Below, one piece after another: positions 3,723 to 26,471 of a stretch of DNA of 64,000 nt. Numbering within the stretch: the stretch's first letter is position 1; each line of letters starts with the position of its first letter. Location: the NCBI RefSeq assembly GCF_055900595.2, contig NZ_CM148325.1; one strand, given 5' to 3'. The translations under genes and the position numbers were made by a program. The notes beneath the pieces were generated by a model. The model did not search any database. It saw only the letters and a program-made list of their open reading frames with translations, and was not told where the DNA came from.

Positions 3723-3740
3723 TTCATTCTTAACTCTCAC

Positions 3741-4349: not shown

Positions 4350-4361
4350 TACGAGGCATTC

Positions 4362-4841: not shown

Positions 4842-5517
4842 TATTCGTGAAGCACATGCGCGCGGCGAACAGGCAATGTCTGTGGTTCTGCGCGCCAGCA
4901 TTATTACCCCGGAAGCCCGCGAAGTGGCGGACTTGTTGGGGTTTACCATCACCGAATGCACTGAATCGACGCCAGTAGCGGCATCTGTTCCCGTCAGCGT
5001 GCCTGCCGATAAAACTGAAAGCCAGCGTATCCGCGAAACCATCATCGCCCAGCTGCCGGAAGGCCAGTTTACCGAAAGCCTGGTCGCGCAGCTGATGGAA
5101 AAAGTGATGAAGGAAAAACAGTCGCTGGAGCAGGGGGCAATGCAGCCGAGTTTTAAATCGGTGACCGGCAAAGGCGGCATCAAAGTTATTGATGGCAGCA
5201 GCGTGAAGTTTGGTCGTTTCGATGGCGCGGAACCGCACTGCGTAGGCTTGACTGATCTCGTGACCGGAGACGACGGCAGCAGCATGGCCGCCGGTTTTAT
5301 GCAGTGGGAGAACGCCTTCTTCCCGTGGACCCTGAACTACGACGAAATCGACATGGTACTGGAAGGGGAGCTTCATGTTCGCCATGAAGGCGAAACCATG
5401 ATCGCTAAAGCAGGCGACGTGATGTTTATCCCGAAAGGTTCCAGCATCGAATTTGGTACGACATCCAGTGTGAAATTCCTGTATGTCGCCTGGCCGGCTA
5501 ACTGGCAATCCCTATGA
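4816..5517 (+). CDS. eutQ: ethanolamine utilisation cupin protein EutQ
   Basis: 233-aa ORF; overlaps eutP 3' end by 26 nt; operon position. Confidence 0.9.
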   Translation: MKKLITANDIREAHARGEQAMSVVLRASIITPEAREVADLLGFTITECTESTPVAASVPVSVPADKTESQRIRETIIAQLPEGQFTESLVAQLMEKVMKEKQSLEQGAMQPSFKSVTGKGGIKVIDGSSVKFGRFDGAEPHCVGLTDLVTGDDGSSMAAGFMQWENAFFPWTLNYDEIDMVLEGELHVRHEGETMIAKAGDVMFIPKGSSIEFGTTSSVKFLYVAWPANWQSL

Positions 5518-6317
5518 AAGATTTCATCACCGAAGCATGGCTAAGAGCGAACCATACGCTCAGCGAAGGCGCAGAGATCCATCTCCCTGCGGACAGTCGC
5601 CTGACGCCCTCTGCCCGGGAGTTACTGGAAAGCCGCCATCTGCGCATCAAGTTTATTGACGAGCAGGGCCGCCTGTTTGTTGACGATGAACAGCAGCAGC
5701 TACAGCCCGTTCACGTGCTGACCAGTAGTGATGAACATCCGCAGGCGTGCTGCGAACTGTGTCACCAGCCAGTGGCGAAAAAGCCGGACACGCTGACTCA
5801 CCTGTCGGCGGAAAAAATGGTCGCCAAAAGCGATCCGCGCCTGGGTTTTCGCGCTGTTCTCGACAGCACCATTGCGCTGGTAGTGTGGCTGCAAATTGAG
5901 CTGACAGAACCGTGGCAGCCGTGGCTGGCGGATATCCGTTCGCGTCTTGGCAACATTATGCGTGCCGATGTGTTGGGCGAACCGATGGGCTGCCAGGCGA
6001 TTGTCGGGTTTTCTGACGAAGATCTGCATCGACTTTCTCACCAGCCACTGCGTTATCTCGACCACGATCATCTGGTGCCGGAAGCCAGCCACGGACGCGA
6101 TGCGGCGTTGCTGAATCTGCTACGCACCAAAGTGCGGGAAACCGAAACCGTCGCGGCGCAGGTGTTTATTACCCGTAGTTTTGAAGTATTACGCCCGGAC
6201 ATCTTGCAGGCGCTGAACCGCCTTTCCAGCACGGTTTACGTGATGATGATTTTGAGCGTAACGAAGCAGCCGCTAACGGTGAAGCAGATCCAACAACGAC
6301 TGGGGGAAACGCAATGA
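5514..6317 (+). CDS. eutT: ethanolamine utilisation corrinoid adenosyltransferase EutT
   Basis: 267-aa ORF; 4-nt overlap with eutQ; operon position. Confidence 0.9.
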
Positions 6318-7330
6318 TTATTGAACGTTGTCGTGAACTGGCGTTGCGAGCGCCCGCCAGAGTGGTTTTTCCTGATGCGTTAGACCAACGCGTGCTGAAA
6401 GCTGCGCAATATTTACATCAACAAGGTCTGGCAACGCCCATTCTGGTCGCCAATCCGTTTGAACTTCGTCAGTTTGCGCTCAGTCACGGCGTGGCGATGG
6501 ACGGGCTACAGGTGATAGATCCGCATGGCAACCTCGCAATGCGGGAAGAATTTGCTCTCCGCTGGCTGGCCCGTGCGGGCGAAAAAACGCCGCCGGATGC
6601 GCTGGAAAAACTCACCGATCCGCTGATGTTCGCTGCCGCAATGGTCAGCGCCGGGACAGCGGATGTCTGTATCGCGGGCAATCTCTCTTCCACGGCAAAT
6701 GTGCTGCGTGCCGGATTACGCATTATTGGCTTACAGCCAGGCTGTAAAACGCTCTCCTCCATTTTCCTGATGCTGCCACAGTACAGTGGCCCCGCGTTGG
6801 GCTTTGCCGATTGCAGCGTAGTGCCACAGCCGACGGCGGCACAACTGGCGGATATCGCGCTTGCCAGCGCCGAAACCTGGCGAGCCATCACCGGAGAAGA
6901 GCCGCGCGTGGCGATGTTGTCGTTCTCCAGTAACGGCAGCGCCCGTCACCCCTGCGTTGCCAACGTGCAGCAAGCGACAGAAATCGTCCGTGAGCGCGCA
7001 CCGCAGCTGGTCGTCGATGGCGAGTTGCAGTTTGACGCCGCCTTTGTGCCAGAAGTGGCGGCGCAAAAAGCGCCAGCCAGCCCGCTACAGGGCAAAGCCA
7101 ATGTGATGGTTTTTCCGTCGCTGGAGGCGGGAAATATTGGCTACAAAATCGCACAACGACTTGGCGGATATCGTGCCGTCGGGCCATTGATACAAGGACT
7201 TGCCGCGCCGATGCACGATCTCTCTCGTGGTTGTAGCGTGCAGGAAATTATCGAGCTGGCGCTGGTGGCAGCTGTGCCGCGTCAGACAGAAGTGAACCGC
7301 GAAAGCAGTTTACAAACACTGGTTGAATGA
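6314..7330 (+). CDS. eutD: ethanolamine utilisation phosphotransacetylase EutD
   Basis: 338-aa PTA-family ORF; 4-nt overlap with eutT. Confidence 0.9.
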
Positions 7331-7368
7331 ACGGTCCCGTTCTGGACCCTGATAAAGAGGAAAGCACA

Positions 7369-7662
7369 ATGGAAGCATTAGGAATGATCGAAACCCGGGG
7401 CCTGGTTGCACTGATTGAGGCTTCTGATGCGATGGTGAAAGCTGCGCGCGTCAAACTGGTTGGTGTTAAGCAGATTGGTGGCGGCCTGTGTACTGCCATG
7501 GTTCGCGGTGATGTTGCAGCCTGTAAAGCCGCGACCGATGCCGGTGCCGCAGCGGCACAGCGTATCGGTGAACTGGTATCCGTACATGTTATTCCGCGTC
7601 CGCACGGCGATCTGGAAGAGGTCTTCCCGATCGGCCTGAAAGGCGATAGCAGCAACCTGTAA
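7369..7662 (+). CDS. eutM: microcompartment shell protein EutM (BMC-H)
   Basis: Internal ATG of ORF 7327-7662; product [28 protein letters not shown]... (97 aa). Confidence 0.9.
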
Positions 7663-7767
7663 TCACCCTGTGTGACGTCGATCCGGGCGTCACGCTCTCT
7701 CCGTTTTCTTTTACCTTCCGCGGAGGGTAAGGAGAGCTTTTACCTGAAATACGCCACGGAGGCGGGT

Positions 7768-8055
7768 ATGAAACTGGCAGTCGTCACAGGACAAATTGTT
7801 TGTACCGTACGCCATCACGGACTGGCGCATGACAAATTGCTGATGGTGGAAATGATTGATCCACAAGGTAATCCTGATGGGCAATGTGCTGTCGCCATCG
7901 ACAATATTGGCGCGGGAACCGGGGAGTGGGTGTTGCTGGTGAGTGGCAGTTCCGCCCGCCAGGCGCATAAAAGCGAAACGTCACCGGTCGATCTGTGCGT
8001 AATTGGCATTGTCGATGAGGTGGTCTCTGGCGGTCAGGTAATTTTCCACAAATAA
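7768..8055 (+). CDS. eutN: microcompartment vertex protein EutN
   Basis: Internal ATG of ORF 7672-8055; product MKLAVVTGQIVCTVRHHGL... (95 aa). Confidence 0.88.
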   Translation: MKLAVVTGQIVCTVRHHGLAHDKLLMVEMIDPQGNPDGQCAVAIDNIGAGTGEWVLLVSGSSARQAHKSETSPVDLCVIGIVDEVVSGGQVIFHK

Positions 8056-8066
8056 GGCAGAACATC

Positions 8067-9470
8067 ATGAATCAACAGGATATTGAACAGGTGGTGAAAG
8101 CGGTACTGCTGAAAATGCAAAGCAGTGACACGTCGCCCGCCGCCGTTCATGAGATGGGCGTTTTTGCTTCCCTGGATGACGCCGTTGCGGCGGCCAAAAT
8201 TGCCCAGCAAGGGTTAAAAAGCGTGGCAATGCGCCAGTTAGCCATTGCTGCTATTCGTGAAGCAGGCGAAAAACACGCCAGAGATTTAGCGGAACTTGCC
8301 GTCAGTGAAACGGGTATGGGCCGCGTAGAAGATAAATTTGCCAAAAACGTCGCTCAGGCACGCGGTACGCCAGGCGTTGAGTGCCTCTCTCCACAGGTGC
8401 TGACCGGTGACAACGGCCTGACTTTAATTGAAAACGCGCCCTGGGGCGTGGTGGCTTCGGTGACGCCTTCCACTAACCCGGCGGCAACCGTAATTAATAA
8501 CGCCATCAGCCTGATTGCCGCGGGCAACAGCGTCATTTTTGCCCCGCATCCGGCGGCGAAAAAAGTCTCTCAACGGGCTATTACGTTGCTCAACCAGGCG
8601 ATTGTTGCCGCAGGCGGGCCGGAAAACTTACTGGTTACTGTGGCAAATCCAGATATCGAAACCGCGCAACGCTTATTCAAGTTTCCGGGCATCGGTCTGT
8701 TGGTGGTGACCGGCGGCGAAGCGGTGGTGGAAGCGGCGCGCAAACACACCAATAAACGTCTGATTGCCGCAGGTGCTGGCAACCCGCCGGTGGTGGTGGA
8801 TGAAACCGCCGACCTCGCCCGTGCCGCTCAGTCTATCGTCAAAGGCGCTTCTTTCGATAACAACATCATTTGTGCCGATGAAAAGGTACTGATTGTTGTT
8901 GATAGCGTAGCCGATGAACTGATGCGTCTGATGGAAGGCCAGCACGCGGTGAAACTGACCGCAGAACAGGCGCAGCGACTGCAACCGGTGTTGCTGAAAA
9001 ATATCGACGAGCGCGGAAAAGGCACCGTCAGCCGTGACTGGGTGGGGCGCGATGCGGCGAAAATCGCGGCGGCAATCGGCCTGAACGTGCCGCAAGAAAC
9101 GCGCTTGCTGTTTGTAGAAACCACCGAAGAACATCCGTTTGCCGTAACCGAATTGATGATGCCGGTGCTGCCGGTCGTGCGCGTCGCCAACGTGGAGGAT
9201 GCCATTGCGCTGGCGGTGAAACTGGAAGGCGGTTGCCACCACACGGCGGCAATGCACTCGCGCAATATCGAGAACATGAACCAAATGGCGAACGCCATTG
9301 ATACCAGTATTTTCGTTAAGAACGGACCGTGCATTGCCGGGCTGGGGCTGGGCGGGGAAGGCTGGACCACGATGACCATCACTACGCCAACCGGTGAAGG
9401 GGTAACCAGCGCGCGTACGTTTGTCCGTCTGCGTCGCTGTGTATTAGTCGATGCGTTTCGCATTGTTTAA
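8067..9470 (+). CDS. eutE: CoA-acylating acetaldehyde dehydrogenase EutE
   Basis: 467-aa aldehyde dehydrogenase family ORF; operon position. Confidence 0.92.
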   Translation: MNQQDIEQVVKAVLLKMQSSDTSPAAVHEMGVFASLDDAVAAAKIAQQGLKSVAMRQLAIAAIREAGEKHARDLAELAVSETGMGRVEDKFAKNVAQARGTPGVECLSPQVLTGDNGLTLIENAPWGVVASVTPSTNPAATVINNAISLIAAGNSVIFAPHPAAKKVSQRAITLLNQAIVAAGGPENLLVTVANPDIETAQRLFKFPGIGLLVVTGGEAVVEAARKHTNKRLIAAGAGNPPVVVDETADLARAAQSIVKGASFDNNIICADEKVLIVVDSVADELMRLMEGQHAVKLTAEQAQRLQPVLLKNIDERGKGTVSRDWVGRDAAKIAAAIGLNVPQETRLLFVETTEEHPFAVTELMMPVLPVVRVANVEDAIALAVKLEGGCHHTAAMHSRNIENMNQMANAIDTSIFVKNGPCIAGLGLGGEGWTTMTITTPTGEGVTSARTFVRLRRCVLVDAFRIV

Positions 9471-9480
9471 GGAGTAACCG

Positions 9481-10317
9481 ATGGCGCACGACGAACAATG
9501 GCTTACCCCGCGGCTGCAAACGGCGGCAACGCTGTGTAACCAGACGCCCGCCGCGTCGGAATCTCCGCTGTGGCTGGGGGTGGATCTGGGCACCTGCGAT
9601 GTGGTGTCGATGGTTGTCGACGGCGACGGTCAGCCGGTGGCGGTATGCCTCGACTGGGCCGATGTGGTCCGCGACGGCATCGTCTGGGATTTCTTCGGTG
9701 CTGTCACCATTGTTCGTCGCCATCTCGATACCCTTGAGCAGCAATTTGGTCGCCGTTTTAGCCATGCGGCGACCTCATTTCCTCCTGGTACGGACCCGCG
9801 TATTTCCATCAACGTGCTGGAGTCTGCCGGGCTGGAAGTGAGCCATGTGCTGGATGAGCCAACCGCAGTCGCGGATCTACTGCAACTGGATAACGCAGGC
9901 GTAGTGGATATTGGCGGCGGCACTACCGGAATTGCCATCGTGAAAAAGGGCAAGGTGACTTATTCAGCGGATGAAGCGACCGGCGGACATCACATTTCTC
10001 TGACTCTCGCCGGAAATCGCCGTATTTCGCTGGGAGAGGCAGAGCAGTACAAGCGCGGTCACGGTGACGAGATTTGGCCTGCGGTGAAGCCGGTGTACGA
10101 AAAAATGGCGGACATTGTTGCCCGACATATTGAAGGGCAGGGCATTACTGATTTATGGCTGGCGGGCGGCTCCTGTATGCAACCGGGCGTGGCGGAACTG
10201 TTTTGCAAACAATTCCCGGCGTTACAGGTGCATCTACCGCAGCACAGTTTGTTTATGACCCCGCTGGCGATCGCCAGTAGCGGGCGAGAGAAAGCGGAGG
10301 GGATCTATGCAAAATGA
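9481..10317 (+). CDS. eutJ: ethanolamine utilisation chaperone-like protein EutJ
   Basis: 278-aa ORF with actin/Hsp70-like ATPase motifs (DLGTCD, DIGGGTTG). Confidence 0.9.
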   Translation: MAHDEQWLTPRLQTAATLCNQTPAASESPLWLGVDLGTCDVVSMVVDGDGQPVAVCLDWADVVRDGIVWDFFGAVTIVRRHLDTLEQQFGRRFSHAATSFPPGTDPRISINVLESAGLEVSHVLDEPTAVADLLQLDNAGVVDIGGGTTGIAIVKKGKVTYSADEATGGHHISLTLAGNRRISLGEAEQYKRGHGDEIWPAVKPVYEKMADIVARHIEGQGITDLWLAGGSCMQPGVAELFCKQFPALQVHLPQHSLFMTPLAIASSGREKAEGIYAK

Positions 10318-11494
10318 ATTGCAGACCGCGCTCTTTCAGGCGTTCGATACCCTGAATCTGCAACGGGTAAAAACATTTAGCGTTCCACCGGTGACGCTTT
10401 GCGGCCCGGGCGCGGTGAGCAGTTGCGGACAGCAAGCACAAACGCGTGGGCTGAAACATCTGTTCGTGATGGCAGACAGCTTTTTGCATCAGGCGGGGAT
10501 GACCGCCGGGCTGACGCGCAGTCTGGCCGTTAAAGGCATCGCCATGACGCTCTGGCCATGTCCGGTGGGCGAACCGTGCATCACTGACGTGTGTGCCGCC
10601 GTGGCGCAACTGCGCGAATCAGGCTGTGACGGGGTGATCGCGTTTGGCGGTGGCTCGGTGCTGGATGCGGCAAAAGCCGTTGCGTTGCTGGTGACGAACC
10701 CCGACAGCACGCTGGCAGAAATGTCAGAAACCAGCGTTCTGCAACCGCGTCTGCCGCTGATTGCCATTCCAACTACCGCCGGAACCGGCTCTGAAACCAC
10801 CAATGTAACGGTGATTATCGACGCGGTGAGCGGGCGCAAGCAGGTGTTAGCACATGCCTCGTTGATGCCGGATGTGGCGATTCTCGATGCCGCGCTGACC
10901 GAAGGTGTGCCGTCGCATGTCACGGCAATGACCGGTATCGACGCGTTAACTCATGCCATTGAAGCGTACAGCGCGCTGAACGCTACACCGTTTACCGACA
11001 GTCTGGCGATTGGTGCCATTGCGATGATTGGCAAATCACTGCCGAAAGCAGTGGGCTACGGTCACGACCTTGCCGCGCGCGAGAGTATGTTGCTGGCTTC
11101 ATGCATGGCGGGAATGGCATTTTCCAGTGCCGGACTTGGGTTATGTCACGCGATGGCGCATCAGCCGGGGGCGGCGCTGCATATTCCGCACGGACTGGCG
11201 AACGCCATGCTGCTGCCCACGGTGATGGAGTTTAACCGGATGGTCTGTCGCGAACGCTTTAGTCAGATTGGTCGGGCGCTGCGAACTAAAAAATCCGACG
11301 ATCGTGATGCTATTAACGCGGTAAGTGAGCTGATTGCGGAAGTCGGGATTGGTAAACGACTGGGCGATGTTGGTGCGGCATCTGCGCATTACGGCGCATG
11401 GGCGCAGGCCGCGCTGGAAGATATTTGTCTGCGCAGCAACCCGCGTACCGCCAGCCTGGAGCAGATTGTCGGCTTGTACGCAGCGGCGCAATAA
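10307..11494 (+). CDS. eutG: iron-containing alcohol dehydrogenase EutG
   Basis: 395-aa Fe-ADH family ORF; overlaps eutJ by 11 nt. Confidence 0.9.
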   Translation: MQNELQTALFQAFDTLNLQRVKTFSVPPVTLCGPGAVSSCGQQAQTRGLKHLFVMADSFLHQAGMTAGLTRSLAVKGIAMTLWPCPVGEPCITDVCAAVAQLRESGCDGVIAFGGGSVLDAAKAVALLVTNPDSTLAEMSETSVLQPRLPLIAIPTTAGTGSETTNVTVIIDAVSGRKQVLAHASLMPDVAILDAALTEGVPSHVTAMTGIDALTHAIEAYSALNATPFTDSLAIGAIAMIGKSLPKAVGYGHDLAARESMLLASCMAGMAFSSAGLGLCHAMAHQPGAALHIPHGLANAMLLPTVMEFNRMVCRERFSQIGRALRTKKSDDRDAINAVSELIAEVGIGKRLGDVGAASAHYGAWAQAALEDICLRSNPRTASLEQIVGLYAAAQ

Positions 11495-11496
11495 AT

Positions 11497-11580
<84 letters not shown>

Positions 11581-11610
11581 ATAAATAACAACTAACAGGG
11601 AGTAAAGGCG

Positions 11611-12837
11611 ATGGGAATTAACGAAATCATCATGTACATCATGATGTTCTTTATGCTGATAGCTGCCGTGGACAGGATCCTGTCGCAGTTCGGCGGTTCT
11701 GCTCGTTTCCTCGGTAAGTTCGGTAAAAGTATCGAAGGATCCGGCGGCCAGTTCGAAGAAGGCTTTATGGCAATGGGCGCACTGGGCCTGGCGATGGTCG
11801 GTATGACCGCACTGGCACCAGTTCTGGCCCACGTACTTGGGCCGGTGATTATCCCGGTTTACGAAATGCTCGGTGCTAACCCATCGATGTTCGCCGGAAC
11901 ACTGCTGGCGTGCGACATGGGCGGCTTCTTCCTCGCGAAAGAGCTGGCGGGCGGCGATGTGGCAGCGTGGCTATACTCTGGGTTAATTCTCGGATCGATG
12001 ATGGGGCCAACGATTGTGTTTTCCATTCCGGTGGCGCTCGGCATTATCGAACCTTCTGACCGTCGTTATCTGGCGCTCGGCGTGCTGGCGGGCATTGTGA
12101 CCATTCCAATTGGCTGTATCGCTGGAGGTCTGGTAGCTATGTATTCCGGTGTGCAGATCAACGGGCAGCCGGTGGAATTCACCTTTGCGCTTATCCTGAT
12201 GAATATGATCCCGGTACTTATCGTCGCGGTACTGGTGGCGCTGGGGCTGAAATTCATCCCGGAAAAAATGATCAACGGCTTCCAGATCTTCGCCAAGTTC
12301 CTCGTTGCATTGATCACCCTCGGTCTTGCTGCCGCGGTAGTGAAATTCCTCCTTGGCTGGGAACTGATCCCCGGTCTTGATCCGATCTTTATGGCCCCTG
12401 GCGATAAACCCGGTGAAGTGATGCGCGCCATTGAAGTTATCGGTTCTATCTCCTGCGTGCTGTTAGGGGCGTATCCGATGGTGCTGCTGCTGACCCGCTG
12501 GTTTGAAAAACCGCTGATGAGCGTCGGTAAAGTGCTGAATATGAACAACATCGCGGCAGCCGGCATGGTGGCAACGCTTGCCAACAACATCCCGATGTTT
12601 GGCATGATGAAGCAGATGGATACCCGCGGCAAAGTCATCAACTGTGCCTTCGCCGTTTCCGCTGCTTTCGCCCTGGGTGACCACTTAGGCTTCGCCGCTG
12701 CCAACATGAACGCCATGATCTTCCCGATGATTGTCGGCAAGTTGATCGGCGGCGTAACGGCGATTGGCGTGGCGATGATGCTGGTGCCAAAAGAAGACGC
12801 GACCGCGGCTAAAACCGAAGCGGAGGCACAATCGTGA
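11611..12837 (+). CDS. eutH: ethanolamine permease EutH
   Basis: 408-aa polytopic membrane ORF; operon position. Confidence 0.92.
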   Translation: MGINEIIMYIMMFFMLIAAVDRILSQFGGSARFLGKFGKSIEGSGGQFEEGFMAMGALGLAMVGMTALAPVLAHVLGPVIIPVYEMLGANPSMFAGTLLACDMGGFFLAKELAGGDVAAWLYSGLILGSMMGPTIVFSIPVALGIIEPSDRRYLALGVLAGIVTIPIGCIAGGLVAMYSGVQINGQPVEFTFALILMNMIPVLIVAVLVALGLKFIPEKMINGFQIFAKFLVALITLGLAAAVVKFLLGWELIPGLDPIFMAPGDKPGEVMRAIEVIGSISCVLLGAYPMVLLLTRWFEKPLMSVGKVLNMNNIAAAGMVATLANNIPMFGMMKQMDTRGKVINCAFAVSAAFALGDHLGFAAANMNAMIFPMIVGKLIGGVTAIGVAMMLVPKEDATAAKTEAEAQS

Positions 12838-14237
12838 ACACTCGCCAGCTACTGAGCGTCGGTATCGATATCGGCACTACCACCACCCAGGTGATCTTCT
12901 CCCACCTGGAGCTGGTTAACCGTGCGGCGGTGTCGCAGGTGCCGCGCTACGAATTCATCAAACGCGAAATTAGCTGGCAAAGCCCGGTGTTCTTTACCCC
13001 TGTCGATAAACTGGGCGGTTTAAAAGAAGCGGAACTGAAAACCTTAATCCTCGAGCAATATCAGGCTGCGGGCATTGCGCCGGAAAGCGTTGATTCTGGT
13101 GCCATCATCATCACCGGTGAAAGCGCGAAAACCCGCAATGCTCGCCCGGCGGTGATGACGCTCTCCCAGTCGCTTGGCGATTTTGTCGTCGCCAGCGCCG
13201 GGCCGCATCTCGAATCCGTGATCGCCGGTCACGGTGCCGGGGCGCAAACCCTTTCTGAACAACGGCTGTGTCGGGTACTGAATATCGATATTGGCGGTGG
13301 CACCGCGAACTACGCTTTGTTCGATGCCGGAAAAATCAGCGGCACCGCTTGCCTCAACGTCGGCGGTCGCCTGCTGGAAACCGACAGCCAGGGGCGCGTG
13401 GTTTACGCTCATAAACCGGGGCAGATGATAGTGGATGAGTGCTTCGGTGCAGGCACTGACGCCCGTTCGCTGACTGGCGCGCAGCTGGTGCAGGTTACCC
13501 GGCGGATGGCGGAACTGATTGTCGAAGTGATTGACGGAACGCTCTCGCCGCTCGCGCAGGCATTGATGCAAACCGGTTTGCTGCCCGCAGGTGTTACGCC
13601 AGAAATCATTACGCTTTCTGGCGGCGTGGGCGAATGTTATCGCCACCAGCCCGCTGACCCGTTCTGTTTTGCCGATATTGGCCCGCTTCTGGCAACGGCG
13701 CTGCATGACCATCCGCGCCTGCGTGAGATGAACGTGCAGTTTCCGGCGCAAACCGTACGCGCCACGGTGATTGGCGCGGGCGCACATACCCTTTCGCTCT
13801 CTGGCAGCACAATCTGGCTGGAGGGGGTACAACTGCCGCTGCGCAATTTGCCGGTGGCGATCCCAATTGATGAAACGGATCTGGTGAGTGCCTGGCAACA
13901 AGCGCTAATTCAGCTGGATCTTTGCCCCAAAACTGACGCGTACGTGCTGGCGCTTCCCGCCTCGCTGCCTGTGCGTTACGCCGCGGTACTGACGGTCATC
14001 AACGCGCTGGTCGATTTCGTCGCGCGTTTTCCGAATCCGCATCCCCTGCTGGTGGTGGCCGGGCAGGATTTTGGTAAAGCTCTGGGCATGTTGTTGCGCC
14101 CACAGCTACAACAACTCCCGTTGGCAGTCATTGACGAAGTGATTGTCCGCGCGGGGGACTATATCGACATTGGTACGCCTCTTTTTGGCGGATCGGTTGT
14201 GCCGGTGACGGTGAAATCACTCGCATTTCCTTCCTGA
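12834..14237 (+). CDS. eutA: ethanolamine ammonia-lyase reactivase EutA
   Basis: 467-aa ORF; 4-nt overlap with eutH. Confidence 0.92.
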   Translation: MNTRQLLSVGIDIGTTTTQVIFSHLELVNRAAVSQVPRYEFIKREISWQSPVFFTPVDKLGGLKEAELKTLILEQYQAAGIAPESVDSGAIIITGESAKTRNARPAVMTLSQSLGDFVVASAGPHLESVIAGHGAGAQTLSEQRLCRVLNIDIGGGTANYALFDAGKISGTACLNVGGRLLETDSQGRVVYAHKPGQMIVDECFGAGTDARSLTGAQLVQVTRRMAELIVEVIDGTLSPLAQALMQTGLLPAGVTPEIITLSGGVGECYRHQPADPFCFADIGPLLATALHDHPRLREMNVQFPAQTVRATVIGAGAHTLSLSGSTIWLEGVQLPLRNLPVAIPIDETDLVSAWQQALIQLDLCPKTDAYVLALPASLPVRYAAVLTVINALVDFVARFPNPHPLLVVAGQDFGKALGMLLRPQLQQLPLAVIDEVIVRAGDYIDIGTPLFGGSVVPVTVKSLAFPS

Positions 14238-14248
14238 GGGAACGACTT

Positions 14249-15610
14249 ATGAAACTAAAGACCACATTGTTCGGCAATGTATATCAGTTTAAGGATGTAA
14301 AAGAGGTGCTGGCTAAAGCCAACGAACTGCGTTCGGGGGATGTGCTGGCGGGCGTTGCAGCGGCAAGTTCACAGGAGCGCGTGGCGGCAAAGCAGGTGTT
14401 GTCGGAAATGACCGTAGCGGACATCCGCAATAATCCGGTGATTGCCTATGAAGATGACTGCGTGACGCGGCTGATTCAGGACGACGTTAACGAAACGGCC
14501 TACAACCAGATTAAAAACTGGAGCATCAGCGAACTGCGTGAGTATGTGCTGAGTGATGAAACCAGCGTGGACGACATTGCCTTTACCCGCAAAGGGCTGA
14601 CCTCGGAAGTGGTCGCGGCGGTAGCGAAGATTTGCTCCAACGCGGACCTGATCTACGGCGCGAAGAAAATGCCGATTATCAAAAAGGCCAATACTACCAT
14701 CGGTATTCCGGGCACCTTTAGCGCCCGTTTGCAGCCGAACGATACCCGTGACGACGTGCAGAGTATCGCCGCGCAAATCTACGAAGGGCTTTCCTTCGGG
14801 GTAGGCGATGCGGTGATCGGCGTTAACCCGGTGACTGACGACGTGGAAAACTTAAGCCGCGTGCTGGATACCATCTATGGCGTGATCGACAAATTCAACA
14901 TTCCGACCCAGGGCTGCGTGCTGGCGCACGTTACTACCCAGATTGAAGCGATCCGTCGCGGCGCGCCGGGCGGGCTGATTTTCCAGAGCATCTGCGGCAG
15001 CGAAAAAGGGCTGAAAGAATTTGGCGTGGAGCTGGCGATGCTCGATGAAGCACGCGCAGTGGGCGCAGAGTTTAACCGTATCGCCGGGGAAAACTGCCTC
15101 TACTTCGAAACCGGGCAAGGTTCTGCGCTATCGGCGGGCGCTAACTTCGGCGCAGATCAGGTAACGATGGAAGCGCGTAACTACGGGCTGGCACGTCATT
15201 ACGATCCGTTTATCGTCAACACCGTAGTGGGCTTTATTGGGCCAGAGTATCTCTACAACGACCGGCAGATTATCCGTGCGGGCTTAGAAGATCACTTTAT
15301 GGGCAAACTGAGCGGCATTTCTATGGGCTGTGACTGCTGCTACACCAACCACGCTGACGCTGACCAGAACCTCAACGAAAACCTGATGATCCTGCTCGCC
15401 ACCGCAGGCTGCAACTACATCATGGGGATGCCGCTGGGTGATGACATCATGCTCAACTACCAGACCACCGCATTCCACGATACCGCCACTGTGCGTCAGT
15501 TACTCAACCTGCGCCCGTCACCGGAGTTTGAACGCTGGCTGGAAAGCATGGGCATTATGGCAAACGGTCGCCTGACCAAACGGGCGGGCGATCCGTCACT
15601 GTTCTTCTGA
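14249..15610 (+). CDS. eutB: ethanolamine ammonia-lyase heavy chain EutB
   Basis: 453-aa ORF starting 11 nt after eutA stop. Confidence 0.93.
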   Translation: MKLKTTLFGNVYQFKDVKEVLAKANELRSGDVLAGVAAASSQERVAAKQVLSEMTVADIRNNPVIAYEDDCVTRLIQDDVNETAYNQIKNWSISELREYVLSDETSVDDIAFTRKGLTSEVVAAVAKICSNADLIYGAKKMPIIKKANTTIGIPGTFSARLQPNDTRDDVQSIAAQIYEGLSFGVGDAVIGVNPVTDDVENLSRVLDTIYGVIDKFNIPTQGCVLAHVTTQIEAIRRGAPGGLIFQSICGSEKGLKEFGVELAMLDEARAVGAEFNRIAGENCLYFETGQGSALSAGANFGADQVTMEARNYGLARHYDPFIVNTVVGFIGPEYLYNDRQIIRAGLEDHFMGKLSGISMGCDCCYTNHADADQNLNENLMILLATAGCNYIMGMPLGDDIMLNYQTTAFHDTATVRQLLNLRPSPEFERWLESMGIMANGRLTKRAGDPSLFF

Positions 15611-15630
15611 TGACGCGGAGATAACACATC

Positions 15631-16518
15631 ATGGATCAAAAACAGATTGAAGAAATTGTACGCAGCGTGATGGCGTCAATGGGACAAGCGGCCCCCGCGC
15701 CGTCAGAAGCAAAATGCGCCACTACCACCTGTGCAGCACCGATGACCTCGGAAAGCTGCGCGCTGGATTTAGGTTCCGCAGAAGCAAAAGCGTGGATTGG
15801 CGTTGAAAACCCACATCGCGCAGACGTATTAACTGAACTGCGCCGCAGCACCGTGGCTCGCGTCTGTACCGGTCGTGCCGGTCCGCGTCCGCGTACCCAG
15901 GCGTTGCTGCGTTTCCTGGCCGATCACTCTCGTTCGAAAGACACCGTACTGAAAGAAGTGCCGGAAGAGTGGGTGAAAGCGCAGGGCTTGCTGGAGGTCC
16001 GCTCTGAAATTAGCGACAAAAATCTCTATCTGACTCGCCCGGATATGGGCCGCCGCTTGTGTGCAGAGGCTGTTGAAGCGCTGAAAGCGCAGTGTGTTGC
16101 CAATCCGGACGTACAGGTCGTTATTTCTGATGGCCTGTCAACTGATGCGATCACCGTGAACTACGAAGAGATCCTGCCACCGCTGATGGCGGGCCTGAAA
16201 CAGGCCGGGTTGAAAGTCGGCACACCGTTCTTTGTGCGTTACGGTCGCGTGAAGATTGAAGATCAGATTGGCGAACTTCTTGGCGCGAAAGTGGTGATCC
16301 TGCTGGTGGGGGAACGCCCAGGATTAGGGCAGTCAGAAAGCCTCTCCTGCTACGCCGTTTACTCGCCGCGTATGGCAACCACCGTTGAGGCCGATCGCAC
16401 CTGTATCTCTAACATTCACCAGGGCGGCACGCCGCCGGTTGAAGCCGCAGCCGTCATTGTGGATTTGGCGAAACGTATGCTGGAGCAGAAAGCATCCGGC
16501 ATCAACATGACCCGATAA
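15631..16518 (+). CDS. eutC: ethanolamine ammonia-lyase light chain EutC
   Basis: 295-aa ORF; operon position. Confidence 0.93.
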
Positions 16519-16527
16519 GGAGGCATC

Positions 16528-17187
16528 ATGCCAGCTTTAGATTTGATTCGACCGTCGGTAACCGCCATGCGGGTGATTGCCTCTGTCAACGCCGAATTTG
16601 CGCGTGAACTGAAATTGCCGCCGCATATTCGTAGCCTCGGGCTGATTTCTGCTGATTCCGATGACGTCACCTACATTGCGGCTGACGAAGCGACCAAGCA
16701 GGCGATGGTTGAAGTCGTGTATGGTCGCTCGCTGTATGCGGGAGCTGCACACGGGCCGTCACCGACTGCCGGTGAGGTGCTGATTATGCTTGGTGGGCCA
16801 AACCCGGCGGAAGTGCGTGCTGGTCTGGATGCGATGGTTGCGCATATTGAAAATGGCGCTGCTTTCCAGTGGGCTAATGATGCAGAAAACACAGCCTTCC
16901 TGGCGCATGTCGTTTCGCGTACCGGCTCTTATCTCTCATCAACCGCCGGGATCACGCTTGGCGATCCGCTGGCGTATCTGGTGGCACCGCCGCTGGAAGC
17001 GACCTACGGCATTGATGCAGCGTTGAAATCTGCCGACGTGCAGCTGGTGACCTATGTCCCGCCACCGTCTGAAACCAACTACTCGGCAGCATTTTTAACC
17101 GGTAGCCAGGCCGCGTGTAAAGCAGCCTGTAACGCCTTTACCGATGCAGTGCTGGAAATCGCGCGTAATCCAATCCAGCGTGCGTAA
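16528..17187 (+). CDS. eutL: microcompartment shell protein EutL (tandem BMC)
   Basis: 219-aa ORF; operon position. Confidence 0.92.
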
Positions 17188-17745: not shown

Positions 17746-18798
17746 ATGAAAAAGACCCGTACAGCTAATTTGCACCATCTTTATCATGAACCCTTACCCG
17801 AAAACCTGAAGCTAACGCCGAAGGTCGAAGTGGATAATGTTCATCAACGGCAAACAACGGATGTCTATGAACATGCTTTGACGATTACCGCCTGGCAGCA
17901 GATTTACGATCAGCTGCATCCGGGCAAATTTCATGGTGAATTTACGGAAATTCTGCTCGATGATATTCAGGTTTTCCGTGAATACACGGGGCTGGCGCTG
18001 CGTCAGTCGTGCCTGGTCTGGCCGAATTCGTTCTGGTTTGGCATTCCGGCGACGCGCGGTGAGCAGGGATTTATCGGTTCGCAATGTCTGGGAAGCGCAG
18101 AAATAGCGACGCGCCCTGGTGGAACCGAGTTTGAATTAAGTACGCCGGACGATTACACGATCCTTGGCGTGGTGCTTTCTGAAGATGTCATCACCCGGCA
18201 GGCTAACTTTTTGCATAACCCGGAAAGGGTGCTGCATATGTTACGTAACCAGTCGGCGCTGGAAGTGAAAGAGCAGCATAAAGCCGCGCTGTGGGGCTTT
18301 GTCCAACAGGCTCTGGCGACATTTTGCGAGAACCCGGAAAATCTCCATCAGCCTGCAGTGCGAAAAGTGCTGGGGGATAATTTGCTAATGGCGATGGGGG
18401 CGATGCTGGAAGAAGCGCAGCCAATGGTGACGGTGGAAAGCATCAGTCATCAGAGTTACCGTCGGTTGCTTTCCCGCGCCCGTGAATATGTGCTGGAAAA
18501 CATGTCCGAACCGGTGACGGTGCTGGACTTGTGTAATCAACTGCACGTCAGTCGCCGCACCTTGCAAAACGCATTTCACGCTATTTTGGGCATTGGCCCG
18601 AATGCGTGGCTGAAACGCATTCGCCTGAACGCCGTGCGCCGTGAACTGATTAGCCCGTGGTCGCAAAGTATGACGGTAAAAGACGCCGCCATGCAGTGGG
18701 GATTCTGGCATCTTGGGCAGTTTGCCACGGATTATCAGCAATTGTTTGCAGAAAAGCCTTCACTGACGCTGCATCAGCGGATGCAGGAACTGGAGTGA
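17746..18798 (+). CDS. eutR: AraC-family transcriptional activator of eut operon
   Basis: 350-aa ORF with C-terminal AraC-type HTH; last gene of operon. Confidence 0.92.
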
Positions 18799-18874
18799 GG
18801 GTGAGGGCCGGATGAGGATGGTGTTTGATCCGGTCCATAGTGAAGTTACAAATTACGTTGAATTGCTATGTATT

Positions 18875-19192
18875 TTATTGCCCAACGGGATAGGCGATAA
18901 ACAAACCGACAATTGTCAAAATACACGCCAGCAGGAATACCAACATACAATTTACGCGCTTTCGCGAAATTTTAAATAAATAGCAAAATAGTGTTGTTAC
19001 CACGATCACTACCGGGATAGTCATAAAATTAATAACGATGAGTGCTATCAATCCAAAACTTGCTCCTCCACCGTGGGGAATAAAAATGTGTTCTTCAAAA
19101 TAAACTTCTATAGCAAATGCCAGCACACATCCCAGAAAACTCATATCCAGATGAGGGTGCCATTTACTTTCTTTATGTGATGTGTCTGACAT
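18875..19192 (-). CDS. hypothetical small membrane protein (about three predicted TM segments), not recognised
   Basis: 105-aa ORF; hydrophobic stretches LGCVLAFAIEVYF, FGLIALIVINFMTIPVVIVVTTLFCYLF, MLVFLLACILTIVGLFIAYPV; SD-like gggag about 9 nt upstream of ATG; 40 bp downstream of the 420-aa ORF on same strand; AT-rich. Confidence 0.6.
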   Translation of the reverse strand: MSDTSHKESKWHPHLDMSFLGCVLAFAIEVYFEEHIFIPHGGGASFGLIALIVINFMTIPVVIVVTTLFCYLFKISRKRVNCMLVFLLACILTIVGLFIAYPVGQ

Positions 19193-19232
19193 TCTTAAAT
19201 GCTCCCGTGAGCAAACTGGCGCAAAATAATTT

Positions 19233-20495
19233 CTAAGATTGCTGATAAGACGTCGCTGTTGTCCGGCACTCCGGGCAGATAAACGCGTAAATTATCCCTT
19301 CGCCGTATTGTTCAATATCGGCATAATCCAGTTGCGCAAGAAACATCATTGTGTGGGAACATTGCGGACAGAGAGGATATTCCGCGTCCTGAATCCAGGT
19401 TGGATGCCCGCCAAGTTGCGAGAAAGAGACAGGTAAAAATGGGTCTGCGGCAAATAACGGTGACCTAAGGTTTCCCTGTCTCATGCTGTTTACAGGGAGT
19501 CGACGCCATTCCGATACATCATCCGGCAGCCAGGCAGGCGGGATATTTTTTGCAGACAAATGAGCGTTACCCTTTGAGTCCATGTAGCCGAAAATGGTGC
19601 TGTAGGCGGTGCAACATTCGCAAGTCACGACGCGAAAACTGCCGTTATCGCTAAGACCCGTTGCCTTCAGGTCAACGTCGAAAAGATTTGTTAGTGGCAA
19701 TGCGCAATTTGGACAGGTATCGTTGCGTTCATCAACAACACGCAAAGCTTCGCAAGACCCGGTGCTTTTCATCTCCAGATGAAAACATTGAGGAAAATAG
19801 AGATTACGCCTTTGATCTTCAGCGGTTAACTCCCAACCGGCCTCATGCGCATATTCTTCAGGCTCGATGTAAAGGGAGCTGCGCCACGGCGGTGGGCTAT
19901 TGCGCCAGTGGGCAAAACGTTCAACGACAACGTCATCCCCAATCCATGCCAGACATTGCAGAATACAATTTCTGTTTTCTGCATCATCCTCAACCCGTTC
20001 TAACAGCCTGTCGCGTACATCTGTGGGGGCGCGGTGGAAAGGCATATAAGAATCATTGTCCAAATCATCGTAAGAGATCCATTCTCTGAAATAGGCATTC
20101 AGATTCGCCTGGGTAAATGCCGCCAGACAAAGGCAAATCTCCTGAGCGAGCTTATATTCACCAGATGCAAAGCGTTCTGTGGCGTAATCAGCCATCAGCT
20201 GCGCTTGATCGGTGGTCAGTTGTTGATACAGGGCATCTGTGGGAACGGGGCAGGGAGTCCAGTCGATTAACGCATCGAATTTCCGCGGTTGGTGAATTAA
20301 TTTCAGCATGACAACCGGATCGCTTAACCCTGCAAACGCATTCACGATCTTTTTGTTTTTCTTGATATATTCGTCGTGCTCACGTTGCTGTTGGGCCTGC
20401 TCGCAGGGCATGCAGTATCCGTTAGTACGCGCTGCGGTTTCCGGAAGAATGGTTGATATACAAGCGGGGCTTTTACAGGGAATACGGTGAGTCAT
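19233..20495 (-). CDS. hypothetical cysteine-rich protein, unrecognised; C-terminal region resembles DUF1963/YwqG-type domain
   Basis: 420-aa ORF with aggag SD 7 nt upstream of ATG; three CxxC-containing pairs (CKSPAC/CMPC, CPNC/CECC, CPQC/CPEC); no signal peptide or TM segment; not in K-12 gene order between eutR and hemF. Confidence 0.8.
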   Translation of the reverse strand: MTHRIPCKSPACISTILPETAARTNGYCMPCEQAQQQREHDEYIKKNKKIVNAFAGLSDPVVMLKLIHQPRKFDALIDWTPCPVPTDALYQQLTTDQAQLMADYATERFASGEYKLAQEICLCLAAFTQANLNAYFREWISYDDLDNDSYMPFHRAPTDVRDRLLERVEDDAENRNCILQCLAWIGDDVVVERFAHWRNSPPPWRSSLYIEPEEYAHEAGWELTAEDQRRNLYFPQCFHLEMKSTGSCEALRVVDERNDTCPNCALPLTNLFDVDLKATGLSDNGSFRVVTCECCTAYSTIFGYMDSKGNAHLSAKNIPPAWLPDDVSEWRRLPVNSMRQGNLRSPLFAADPFLPVSFSQLGGHPTWIQDAEYPLCPQCSHTMMFLAQLDYADIEQYGEGIIYAFICPECRTTATSYQQS

Positions 20496-20633
20496 AGAGG
20501 CGCTCCTTGCCTGAGGATATTAAGTCGAAAGAGATTATTATTAGATATTAGGGTGTCACTATGGCACACAAATTAAAACAGCATTAATTTTATGCCACCA
20601 ACCGAGGGTTATTTTTCTTTTATTTTCATGATA

Positions 20634-21536
<903 letters not shown>

Positions 21537-22406
21537 TTACCGCTTTCTCGAGTGTGCTTTCTGGTTGTCAAACCAGTGGAAATAACTGATCACGCCTTCG
21601 GCAATGGCTGTGGCGATTTTCTGGCGAAATGCCGCCGTGCCTAACAGCCGCTCTTCTTCCGGGTTGGTGATAAAAGAAGTTTCCACCAGCACCGAAGGAA
21701 CAGATGGCGATTTCAACACTACAAACGCGGCTTGTTCGGTATTGCGGCTGTGCAGCTTATGCACCGGCTTAATCTTCTTCAGAATATGTGAGCCGAGCGT
21801 CAGGCTGTTTTTAATAGTATCGGTTTGTACCAGATCAAACAGCACTTGTTGCAATAGGTGATCCTTGTCAGTCGCTTTTTTACCGGCAACTTCATCAGCG
21901 CGGTTTTCGCGTTCAGACAGGTATTTCGCCATTGCGCTACTTGCCCCACGGTTAGAGAGAGCAAATACCGAAGCACCGGCAGCTTTCGGGTTGGTAAAGC
22001 CATCGGCATGAATTGACATAAACAGATCTGCGCCATGTTTATGGGCGATTTCAACGCGATCGTAAAGTGGGATAAACGTATCGCCAGAACGCGTTAAACG
22101 CGCATCAATGCCATGATTACGCAAAATGGAACGGACGTTTTTGGCAATTGCCAGCACCACATGTTTTTCTTTCGAACCGTTGCGACCAATCGCCCCGGTA
22201 TCAATCCCGCCGTGGCCTGGATCGAGAACAACGACACGTTTGCCGCCGTTTTTTTTTGCTTTCGGCTTGCTGTGTCCGTTGCTGGTTTTTAAAGGTTCTT
22301 CTTTGGCGATGGCTTGCGACATTCCTGACAACGTCAGGGCAGCCAATCCGGCTTTCAGCACCTGGCGGCGCGAAGTGAGTGTTTTTAGTGGTTTAAAAGT
22401 GCTCAT
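21537..22406 (-). CDS. amiA: N-acetylmuramoyl-L-alanine amidase A (Tat-exported)
   Basis: 289-aa ORF with twin-arginine signal SRRQVLKAG and amidase_3 domain; 3 bp upstream of hemF. Confidence 0.93.
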   Translation of the reverse strand: MSTFKPLKTLTSRRQVLKAGLAALTLSGMSQAIAKEEPLKTSNGHSKPKAKKNGGKRVVVLDPGHGGIDTGAIGRNGSKEKHVVLAIAKNVRSILRNHGIDARLTRSGDTFIPLYDRVEIAHKHGADLFMSIHADGFTNPKAAGASVFALSNRGASSAMAKYLSERENRADEVAGKKATDKDHLLQQVLFDLVQTDTIKNSLTLGSHILKKIKPVHKLHSRNTEQAAFVVLKSPSVPSVLVETSFITNPEEERLLGTAAFRQKIATAIAEGVISYFHWFDNQKAHSRKR

Positions 22407-25170: not shown

Positions 25171-26471
25171 TACTGCTTTAACGCCGCATACACCTGATCC
25201 ACCACCCAACCATAAGTTGCAATCGGTAACTGACCGCTTTCGAACATATTGGGATTTTTTTGTGGATCGGCAACTGGCGAATGTGGCTTGTTGCTTAACA
25301 TCACAATCGCCATATGATTGATAGGATCGATAACGGTCACCGTCCCGGTCCAGCCCGTGTGACCGTAGGTTTGCGGGCTTGCCAGCGTACCAAACGTCGG
25401 CGTCATGGTGGCATTACCATTCACGCGCCAGCCGAGGCCAAAAGTGGCGTCTTCCTTTGAGCTGGTGGTGAACATCTTAACCGTTTCCGCACTGAACAGC
25501 GTCACATCACCATAGCCGCCGCCGTTCAGCATCGTTTGCATTAACACCGCAATATCACCGGTATTGGAAAACAAACCTGCGTGCCCGGAAACGCCGCCCA
25601 TCGAATAGAATGCTTTTTCATCGTGCACCTGACCCCAGAGAGTGGAGGTGCGGATATTCGGGAAGTGAATCACGCCATCGCGGGTATTGCCGTTCAGTTC
25701 CGTGGCGGCAATTTGCTGTGGTTTAAAGCCTTTCAGCAGCGGATTAAACACCGTATGCGTCAGGCCGAGCGGGCGATAAATCGACTCTTCAACATAGCGG
25801 TCAAGCGGCTGACCAGTAACTGACTCGACGATAAATCCAAGCAGCATATAATCGACATCGCTGTAGATATGTTTGCTGCCGGGCTGATATTCCAGCGGCG
25901 TGCGCTTGATCATTTCCAGCGTCTGGCCTTTATCCTGGGAATATAACGCGCCCGCGACGGCTTTATTTGGGTATTGCGGGTCCGCCGGGAAACCGCCGCT
26001 GTGATGCAGCAGATCAGAAATCCGCAGCGTGTTTTTGCCTTTGATGGTGTCATTTGGACTGTCGGCAAATCCCGGAATATATTTCGCAATCAGATCGTCA
26101 GGATGTAGTTTGCCTTCGCTCATTAGCTTTTGTAGGGCGAAGTTAGTGGCGTACATTTTTGTGTTTGAGGCCAGGTCATACAGCGTCTCGGTGGTTGCTT
26201 TTACTGGCTGCTTCATTAACACGCTGCCATCGTACTTTTTCGCCGCGCCCCAGGCTTTGCGATACACAATCTGATTATCTTTTATAATCAGCAGGTTTAC
26301 GCCGGGATAACCATCATCAACTTGCTGGCTTATCCAGCGATCCATCTGGTTAAGCCGTTCCACATTGAACCCTGCTTTCTCTGGCGAACTTTCTGTCAGA
26401 ACAGGGTATTTTGCGGCGCTGACGCTACAGCTGACAGCCAGCAGAGAAAAATAGAGCATTGTCCGTTTCAT
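25170..26471 (-). CDS. yfeW: penicillin-binding protein 4B (class C beta-lactamase-like)
   Basis: 433-aa ORF with signal peptide and SxxK motif (ASNTK); K-12 synteny next to murP. Confidence 0.9.
   Translation of the reverse strand: MKRTMLYFSLLAVSCSVSAAKYPVLTESSPEKAGFNVERLNQMDRWISQQVDDGYPGVNLLIIKDNQIVYRKAWGAAKKYDGSVLMKQPVKATTETLYDLASNTKMYATNFALQKLMSEGKLHPDDLIAKYIPGFADSPNDTIKGKNTLRISDLLHHSGGFPADPQYPNKAVAGALYSQDKGQTLEMIKRTPLEYQPGSKHIYSDVDYMLLGFIVESVTGQPLDRYVEESIYRPLGLTHTVFNPLLKGFKPQQIAATELNGNTRDGVIHFPNIRTSTLWGQVHDEKAFYSMGGVSGHAGLFSNTGDIAVLMQTMLNGGGYGDVTLFSAETVKMFTTSSKEDATFGLGWRVNGNATMTPTFGTLASPQTYGHTGWTGTVTVIDPINHMAIVMLSNKPHSPVADPQKNPNMFESGQLPIATYGWVVDQVYAALKQ

Follow-up and report, generated by a model that had tools for sequence, protein, structure and literature searches.

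The stretch of DNA analysed here, referred to below as the window, comprises 64,000 nucleotides of contig NZ_CM148325.1 (NCBI RefSeq assembly GCF_055900595.2) from Escherichia coli and carries two genes between eutR and hemF that are absent from strain K-12. The interval between the eutR and hemF stops, positions 18799 to 20633 (1,835 bp), is filled by these two minus-strand genes, one for a 420-residue protein of the TYPP superfamily (the TYPP gene) and the other, ypfK, for a 105-residue inner-membrane protein (Table 1). A sequence-only reading of the window had placed the two stops at 18798 and 20634, 1.8 kb apart, and had reported two co-oriented minus-strand open reading frames (ORFs) of 420 and 105 residues separated by 40 bp, a Shine-Dalgarno (SD)-like motif before each, and an AT-rich region at 20496 to 20633. 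All of these features agreed with the ORF table and the sequence, the AT-rich region having a guanine-plus-cytosine (GC) content of 0.348. What that reading had missed is that the pair is co-directional with amiA and hemF and lies directly downstream of hemF, with eutR alone being convergent. It had also called the segment an insert, which proved to be a misnomer: K-12 carries a deletion, and the locus in the window was retained from an ancestor.

Table 1. Features at and around the hemF-eutR junction, in window positions
Feature	Position	Strand	Source or remark
eutR	17746-18798	+	ORF table, RefSeq annotation; left flank, converges on ypfK
Spacer between the convergent eutR and ypfK stops, 76 bp	18799-18874		REP-like palindrome at about 18806-18836
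ypfK, 105 aa, three-helix inner-membrane protein	18875-19192	-	ORF table; WP_032184838.1; Pfam PF26378
Intergenic spacer, 40 bp	19193-19232	-	GGGAG SD-like motif about 11 nt before the ypfK ATG
TYPP gene, 420 aa	19233-20495	-	WP_032303504.1; RefSeq name "DUF1963 domain-containing protein"
TYPP gene codons 220-420: two-repeat beta domain (YwqG/DUF1963-PDCD2/TSR4), two CxxC pairs, GGHP, conserved Q	19236-19838	-	
TYPP gene codons 60-219: alpha-helical HEAT/ARM-like solenoid domain	19839-20318	-	
TYPP gene codons 1-47: C4 zinc ribbon (C7, C12, C28, C31), then long helix	20355-20495	-	
hemF stop to TYPP start, AT-rich, 138 bp	20496-20633	-	AAGGAG 8 nt before the ATG; hairpin at about 20561-20598
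hemF	20634-21533	-	Right flank, upstream of the pair
amiA	21537-22406	-	Right flank, upstream of hemF

Both genes are under purifying selection, with ratios of nonsynonymous to synonymous divergence (dN/dS) of 0.16 to 0.33 in three pairwise comparisons (0.24 to 0.30 for ypfK alone). The ratios for the flanks were 0.03 to 0.06, so that the values for the pair are 3 to 10 times as high and indicate selection that is purifying but relaxed. Because of this selection, and because full-length homologues occur in other genera, the two ORFs are real genes rather than chance reading frames. Compared to a window mean of 0.519, the GC content was 0.495 for the TYPP gene and 0.384 for ypfK. Scans for consensus sigma-70 promoters and for intrinsic terminators returned 0 sites each, no terminator-like site was seen in the 40-bp spacer between the two genes, and a search of Rfam over positions 18700 to 20750 gave no match. 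The fold of the hemF-TYPP spacer that contains the hairpin was not significant overall (z of +0.58 relative to shuffled sequences). At 18806 to 18836, between the convergent stops, lies a palindrome resembling repetitive extragenic palindromic (REP) elements, GGCCGGATGAGG...GATCCGGTCC, which forms a weak hairpin (z of -1.55) and is not followed by a run of T residues.

The distribution of the segment within E. coli was determined among 5,426 complete genomes. Most of the segment, with both genes, was present in 25 of them, and 3 more carried the large gene only, which bears out the earlier suggestion of a strain-variable accessory module; the pair has been lost from approximately 99.5% of E. 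coli, K-12 included, and the carriers include the enteropathogenic E. coli (EPEC) strain E2348/69, in which the pair is E2348C_RS14080 and RS14085. In MG1655 the eutR and hemF stops are only 5 nt apart (TGA GGGAG TTA) with no gene between them, as the sequence-only reading had stated, and tblastn at this junction found no remnant of either the TYPP gene or ypfK. A 91-bp probe spanning the K-12 junction aligned in one piece in 5,396 of the 5,426 genomes, and since it aligns whole in so many, the empty state is one allele rather than the product of many independent deletions. The window itself represents a rare, deep-branching E. coli lineage, because its core segment at 44000 to 48000 (ligA to zipA, 25 kb away) was matched at 99% identity or higher in only 9 of the 5,426 genomes, all others reaching no more than about 97%. 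These nine genomes came from one dog and eight humans. Compared to K-12, the window is approximately 95.5% identical over 40 kb, and this identity, about 95 to 96% regionally, drops to 84 to 93% in the 250-bp bins beside the junction (18500 to 18801 and 20634 to 21000). Such a drop fits a long-standing linkage of diverged flanks to the presence and absence alleles, as would be expected if recombination has been suppressed around an old insertion-deletion difference.

The same position is occupied in other genera. The order in E. albertii is amiA-hemF-TYPP-ypfK followed by the eut operon, and that in a Klebsiella-like genome is amiA-hemF-TYPP-ypfK followed by maeB. Salmonella Paratyphi A has hemF-ypfK-TYPP, the reverse of the gene order in Escherichia and the Klebsiella-like genome, and in Yokenella and Superficieibacter the TYPP gene follows hemF without ypfK. 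One contig encodes a YpfK with 99% identity to that of S. Paratyphi A; its ypfK is intact and lies 20 bp past the hemF stop, and its TYPP gene is present only as a C-terminal remnant (4963 to 5190, within positions 4579 to 5357 of our stretch L096); several truncated Salmonella versions of the TYPP protein, 255 to 364 residues long, are also listed in the AlphaFold database (AFDB). In synonymous divergence (dS), the pair is on a par with the core genes on either side. For the window compared with E2348/69, dS was 0.22 for the TYPP gene, 0.12 for ypfK and 0.27 for both hemF and eutR, and against E. albertii it was 0.47 to 0.62 for the pair and 0.54 to 0.66 for hemF. Signatures of mobility were not found, in agreement with the sequence-only reading: a tRNA scan detected none at the locus, no direct or inverted repeats bracket the segment, and neither an integrase nor an insertion sequence (IS) was among the ORFs in the ORF table and annotation. 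Because the same position is occupied across genera, the dS of the pair is that of its flanks and the empty junction is one identical allele, these results demonstrate that the segment is an accessory locus inherited from an enterobacterial ancestor, that its occupied state is ancestral, and that one old, clean deletion has become nearly fixed in E. coli. Loss of an ancestral segment from K-12 had been one of the two origins offered by the sequence-only reading. Some of the occupied E. coli alleles may have come back in from another lineage of Escherichia through homologous recombination, which would still be inheritance of a homologous locus and not a mobile insertion.

Full-length homologues of the large protein, approximately 420 residues long, were found at 38 to 80% identity. 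Examples include those of E. albertii (80%), Citrobacter (73%), and Kluyvera, Phytobacter, Salmonella, Klebsiella and Yokenella (54 to 57%); others occur in Chitinimonas (52%), Clostridium (41%), many Paenibacillus (about 39%), and metagenome-assembled genomes of Planctomycetota and Verrucomicrobiota. An exhaustive profile search returned 539 clusters (at 50% identity) with expectation values (E) of 1e-30 or lower and 2,790 at 1e-3 or lower, and many of these clusters share only the common helical-plus-beta core and have different N-termini. An alignment of 43 sequences contained 38 invariant columns, among them C7, C12, C28, C31, G220, W221, C261, C264, C292, C295, Q388, C407 and Q418, together with S359, G362, G363, P365, W367, Q369, Y373, C376 and C379. 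The CxxC motifs thus form two pairs, C261/C264 with C292/C295 and C376/C379 with C407/C410, in which every cysteine is invariant except C410 (conserved in at least 90% of sequences). Residues G362, G363 and P365 belong to the motif GGHP, and the first repeat has AGWE (G220, W221) in place of GGxP.

An AlphaFold2 (AF2) model of the protein had a predicted local distance difference test score (pLDDT) of 93.6 and a predicted template modelling score (pTM) of 0.88. It consists of a zinc ribbon and long helix (residues 1 to 47, with beta-hairpins at residues 5-6 and 15-16 and the helix at 29 to 47), about eleven helices (60 to 219) and a beta domain (220 to 420). According to the description of family two of the TYPP superfamily (PMC4275035), the TYPP domain carries a GGxP motif, a conserved Q and paired CxxC motifs, the N-terminal part is an alpha-helical domain that is itself uncharacterised, and several members also possess a C4 finger of the DksA/TraR type. 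The large protein has the two-repeat, all-beta fold of YwqG (PDB 1PV5) and the GGxP motif with a highly conserved Gln, which define the superfamily, the paired CxxC motifs seen in a subset of its members, and the N-terminal alpha-helical domain that defines family two. Its N-terminal Cx4C-x15-CxxC motif is invariant and followed by the long helix; Pfam zf-dskA_traR was not among the matches at E of 10 or lower, and a DksA/TraR label for this finger could not be confirmed with Pfam. A Foldseek search of the PDB with the full-length model gave nothing better than an E of 0.07, a profile search of PDB sequences returned nothing relevant, and PADLOC (PADLOC-DB 2.0, E of 0.1 or lower), NCBIfam and PHROGs contained no family for either this protein or YpfK. 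None of the structural neighbours in AFDB is characterised; they are DUF1963 or "putative cytoplasmic" proteins, among them those of Campylobacter showae and related species, and a Campylobacter sequence served to bridge the families in PMC4275035. These results demonstrate that the large protein is a soluble family-two TYPP member with three Cys4 clusters, built from a zinc ribbon, a HEAT-like alpha-solenoid and a TYPP beta domain. It has no predicted membrane helix and is probably cytoplasmic.

YpfK, by comparison, has a narrow distribution. A profile search of 5.8 billion proteins returned only 32 clusters, and all of those with a named source were enterobacterial. The orthologues from E. 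albertii, the Klebsiella-like genome and Salmonella have precomputed matches to the Pfam family PF26378 (YpfK), as do 28 of the 32 clusters; a Pfam profile search with YpfK itself gave no match, either to PF26378 or to any colicin or microcin immunity family. The alignment shows a conserved IFIPHGGG loop, a C-terminal ACILTIxGLFIAYPV helix, and an N-terminal tail in which W11, H14 and L15 are invariant, and AF2 places the helices at residues 14 to 32, 42 to 72 and 77 to 104. YpfK is a membrane protein confined to the Enterobacteriaceae. Its topology is probably N-in/C-out, with the IFIPHGGG loop facing the periplasm, because the positive-inside rule places the KISRKRVN loop in the cytoplasm. 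Both exact proteins are already in RefSeq and UniProt and their families are in Pfam, and literature searches on function, pairing or locus history (ypfK, STM2452/STM2453, hemF-eutR hotspot) found nothing relevant. The sequence-only reading had been unable to match either product to a characterised E. coli protein. Each protein does have a nameable family, TYPP family two for the large and PF26378 for the small, but neither family has been studied experimentally, and neither is a well-characterised housekeeping family.

We then considered whether the two genes work together. No ypfK accompanies the TYPP gene in Yokenella, Superficieibacter, UBA3516, three E. coli genomes or any non-enterobacterial taxon, and YpfK was absent from all 80 loci outside the window that lie beyond a few enterobacterial genera. 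Clustering of the neighbouring genes across 93 loci revealed no operon partner of the TYPP gene that was conserved past lineage-level synteny. When the two proteins were modelled with AF2 as a TYPP-(GGGGS)6-YpfK fusion, they did not dock; the pTM of 0.70 is approximately what we would estimate, with no control model run, for undocked domains, and the tail and loop of YpfK had pLDDT values below 50. Because each gene occurs without the other and the fusion is undocked, YpfK appears to be a lineage-specific neighbour that is probably co-expressed with the TYPP gene and largely independent of its product, not an obligate partner.

We propose, by analogy with the eukaryotic members of the superfamily, that the TYPP protein may act as a zinc-stabilised protein-binding adaptor or chaperone. 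Its pocket (GGHP, Q369, Q388 and the C-terminal YQQ) would close around an extended stretch of a client protein, much as the TYPP domain of PDCD2/Tsr4 holds an unstructured part of ribosomal protein uS5, and the solenoid and zinc ribbon would add further protein contacts. Both genes are dispensable, and their role is probably niche or conflict related. What the analysis itself shows is the fold, the zinc-type cysteine clusters, the strongly conserved polar pocket motif, the relaxed purifying selection and the dispensability of the genes. Mutations in either TYPP repeat abolish binding of PDCD2 to uS5, and the authors of that work predicted that bacterial TYPP proteins chaperone other clients (PMC7736825). 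A housekeeping role in ribosome biogenesis was rejected, because the TYPP gene is absent from 99.5% of E. coli. We assign a probability of about 0.6 to this reading as a whole, that is, a retained ancestral locus encoding a TYPP adaptor or chaperone and an independent YpfK.

Several results weigh against it. The match to Pfam DUF1963 (PF09234) is short, covering 48 residues (359 to 406) and model positions 1 to 51 of 216 at an E of 5.8e-5; the precomputed DUF1963 matches of the orthologues are likewise graded weak or faint. The N-terminal extension of uS5 is specific to eukaryotes and absent from bacteria (PMC7736825), and the PDCD2 analogy therefore gives a mode of action and not a target. 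The literature searched contained no client, ligand, phenotype or expression data for bacterial family-two TYPP proteins, nor a function for any bacterial TYPP (YwqG/DUF1963) protein. The many invariant polar residues would also suit an enzyme. With respect to the independence of YpfK, the failure of the AF2 fusion to dock is weak evidence, given its 7 paired sequences, artificial linker and membrane protein, and the 40-bp spacing and the adjacency across genera despite the swapped order could mean that the two products work together.

Gene content at the hemF-eutR junction varies, making it a small islet whose other occupants bear on function. In E2348/69, a gene for a 1,149-residue SNF2 helicase and a convergent gene for a 223-residue hypothetical protein lie between hemF and the TYPP gene (positions 7795 to 11912 of stretch L002). 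This helicase scored best in NCBIfam against the SCO1167/SCO6262 family, at 679 bits, which is under the cutoff; PADLOC likens it to ZorD/DpdE, it matches phrog_29996 from end to end, and the two proteins could be an uncharacterised defence-type pair. In this strain 98 bp separate the TYPP gene from the divergent SNF2 gene, and a promoter of its own is therefore predicted for the TYPP gene. In E. coli E7-1N7, a TacA-family antitoxin and a TacT-like GNAT acetyltransferase toxin are encoded between hemF and the TYPP gene (4793 to 5585 of stretch L098). In E. coli 2017-02-2CC, ypfK is replaced by a gene for a 221-residue protein that is 58% identical to the 223-residue hypothetical protein of E2348/69, and genes for a Tli3-family type VI secretion system (T6SS) immunity protein and for SEL1-like and TPR proteins lie beside it (647 to 2940 of stretch L097). 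This 221/223-residue family had no match in Pfam or NCBIfam, though it recurs at the junction in two arrangements. The junction can be described as an old presence/absence polymorphism between core genes where cargo of the toxin-antitoxin, T6SS-immunity and SNF2-helicase kinds has come to land.

Further differences were noted in the genomes used for comparison. In NZ_CP010440.1, which is labelled K-12 MG1655, eutA lies directly beside eutB (14235 to 17011 of stretch L014). We take reference MG1655 to carry the CPZ-55 prophage between these two genes and NZ_CP010440.1 to be about 20 kb shorter; the latter may be a cured or derivative strain, with the hemF-eutR junction unaffected. In E2348/69, a Mu-like prophage (Mu transposase, Mor activator and terminase) lies within eutC, approximately 3 kb from the junction (1 to 17000 of stretch L015), and the eut operon is broken in this strain because the prophage interrupts eutC. 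Two parts of the window, about 25205 to 26388 and 35906 to 36881, had no match in E2348/69; by position they correspond to pbp4b and to yfeS, which encodes a WGR-domain protein, and both genes are annotated in K-12 and not annotated in E2348/69. Fusions of WGR to YwqG-family TYPP domains were noted by Burroughs and Aravind (PMC4275035), and a link between the presence or absence of the yfeS WGR protein and the TYPP locus is conceivable.

The cargo at the junction raises the possibility that the two proteins are an immunity-like or conflict module, which we consider unlikely but closest in merit to the adaptor or chaperone proposal. The TYPP protein would clamp an incoming toxin (delivered by T6SS, contact-dependent inhibition or a type VII secretion system, or a bacteriocin) or a phage protein, and YpfK would separately protect the inner membrane, as do the immunity proteins of pore-forming colicins and microcins, with the junction serving as an "orphan immunity" islet. 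Besides the Tli3, SEL1/TPR, TacA/GNAT and ZorD/DpdE-like SNF2 genes beside the TYPP gene in other E. coli, several observations outside the species point in this direction. In about 15 loci of Paenibacillus, Sporosarcina, Lysinibacillus and Fontibacillus, the TYPP gene belongs to arrays of cassettes in shuffled order, SUFU, ankyrin and DUF6138 among them; in one Shewanella locus it adjoins a SMI1_KNR4/SUKH-1 gene, and one relative is fused to a SUKH domain. The patchy distribution across phyla at approximately 40 to 50% identity, the elevated dN/dS, the frequent loss or decay of the genes and the lack of a conserved operon partner are also consistent with such a role. Conversely, neither the window nor any enterobacterial locus has an adjacent toxin gene, and YwqG/DUF1963 goes unmentioned in the first 300,000 characters of the polymorphic-toxin immunity catalogue (Zhang et al. 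2012). Neither protein matched a family in PADLOC, NCBIfam or PHROGs, and YpfK matched none of the colicin and microcin immunity families in Pfam. The associations are guilt by association at a minority of loci, given without a background rate, and the near-invariance of the pocket across phyla points to a conserved target and not to an arms race. A bolder version, to which we give somewhat less credence, is that family-two TYPP proteins and YpfK form an unrecognised class of conflict proteins, with a cytoplasmic clamp on an injected toxin or phage protein, membrane immunity provided by YpfK, and a recurrently reloaded junction islet; if true, this would be the first function for the bacterial TYPP superfamily.

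It is less probable again that the two proteins form one machine, with YpfK either anchoring the TYPP protein to the membrane or being its client in a membrane-associated sensor or adaptor, for example with the cytoplasmic tail KWHPHLD of YpfK held in the TYPP pocket. The genes point the same way, 40 bp apart and without an intervening terminator, and they are adjacent in Escherichia, the Klebsiella-like genome and Salmonella, where the order is swapped. The invariance of W11, H14 and L15 in the tail would also fit, as would the binding of unstructured N-terminal segments by eukaryotic TYPP domains (PMC7736825). This is countered by the solo occurrence of the TYPP gene in the taxa listed above, by the intact ypfK beside a decayed TYPP gene in the Salmonella-like contig, and by the fused model, in which the pTM was roughly that estimated for undocked domains and the N-terminal tail of YpfK was among the regions of low pLDDT.

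We regard as quite improbable the notion that the TYPP domain is an enzyme, such as one that modifies peptides or proteins through its conserved Gln pocket. The invariant polar set (S359, Q360, Q369, D370, Y373, Q388, E399, Q418, Q419 and R229/R230) would suit catalysis, and the authors of PMC4275035, who describe a deep pocket with a conserved Q, bring up catalysis explicitly as a "radical" reading, which they themselves judged less plausible. However, no recognisable catalytic triad or cofactor motif is present, the cysteines look structural, being paired CxxC zinc sites, and the TYPP proteins studied experimentally are all chaperones (PMC7736825). Last and largely refuted is a recent horizontal delivery of the pair as a mobile insert or toxin-antitoxin cassette, both of which we rejected: the rarity of the pair in E. 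coli (0.5% of genomes), the low GC of ypfK and of the AT-rich upstream spacer, and the landing of other cargo at the junction would be expected of such an element, but in every comparison its dS is the same as that of the core genes around it, several genera share the occupied position and one empty-junction allele is common to nearly all E. coli, no repeats, tRNA, integrase or IS were seen, the GC of the TYPP gene is near the window mean, and a toxin-antitoxin identity is further contradicted by the solo occurrence of each gene, intolerable for an obligate pair, by the lack of matches to toxin-antitoxin or defence families in Pfam, NCBIfam and PADLOC, and by a length of 420 residues, far above the size typical of such proteins.

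The preferred reading, a retained locus for a TYPP adaptor or chaperone with an independent YpfK, is of interest because the eukaryotic TYPP proteins PDCD2 and Tsr4 are essential chaperones of ribosomal proteins, which makes the locus a lead on bacterial TYPP function. It also constitutes a natural experiment, in that 28 of the 5,426 E. coli genomes have the genes, the tractable EPEC strain E2348/69 among them, and K-12 precisely lacks them, so that gain- and loss-of-function tests and client pull-downs are straightforward. Beyond this, the locus is one more accessory pair with a mechanism that rests on analogy.

The two proteins were compared to four known systems. Immunity proteins of pore-forming colicins and microcins are small inner-membrane proteins with three or four helices. 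YpfK is of similar size and helix count (105 residues and three predicted membrane helices), and this is a resemblance only, since it has no Pfam match to these families and no bacteriocin gene is nearby. Bacillus subtilis YwqG (PDB 1PV5), the canonical single-domain DUF1963 protein, is itself functionally uncharacterised and only 12% identical to the large protein; it was detected neither by the PDB sequence profile search nor by Foldseek with the full-length model, and at 261 residues it is too short to hold the zinc-ribbon and solenoid region of approximately 220 residues. The uS5 chaperones PDCD2, PDCD2L and Tsr4 share with the locus protein a TYPP domain with the GGxP, CxxC and Q motifs, and the need for both PDCD2 repeats in binding an unstructured client segment (PMC7736825) is the source of the binding mode proposed here. 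PDCD2 differs in having a MYND finger between its repeats, compared to the N-terminal ribbon and solenoid of the locus protein, and PDCD2 and Tsr4 are essential and universal, whereas the TYPP protein of the locus is dispensable and patchy. The likeness would thus be limited to the proposed binding mode and would not extend to membership of that functional class. The closest counterparts are the family-two TYPP proteins of Burroughs and Aravind (2014, PMC4275035), for which a full-length Salmonella enterica protein, not necessarily an orthologue, served as a seed. These have the same architecture, and the locus protein is a member of that family with no difference in kind; to their description, which contains none of the three, the present results add a hemF-linked enterobacterial locus, a pairing with YpfK and a near-complete loss from E. 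coli.

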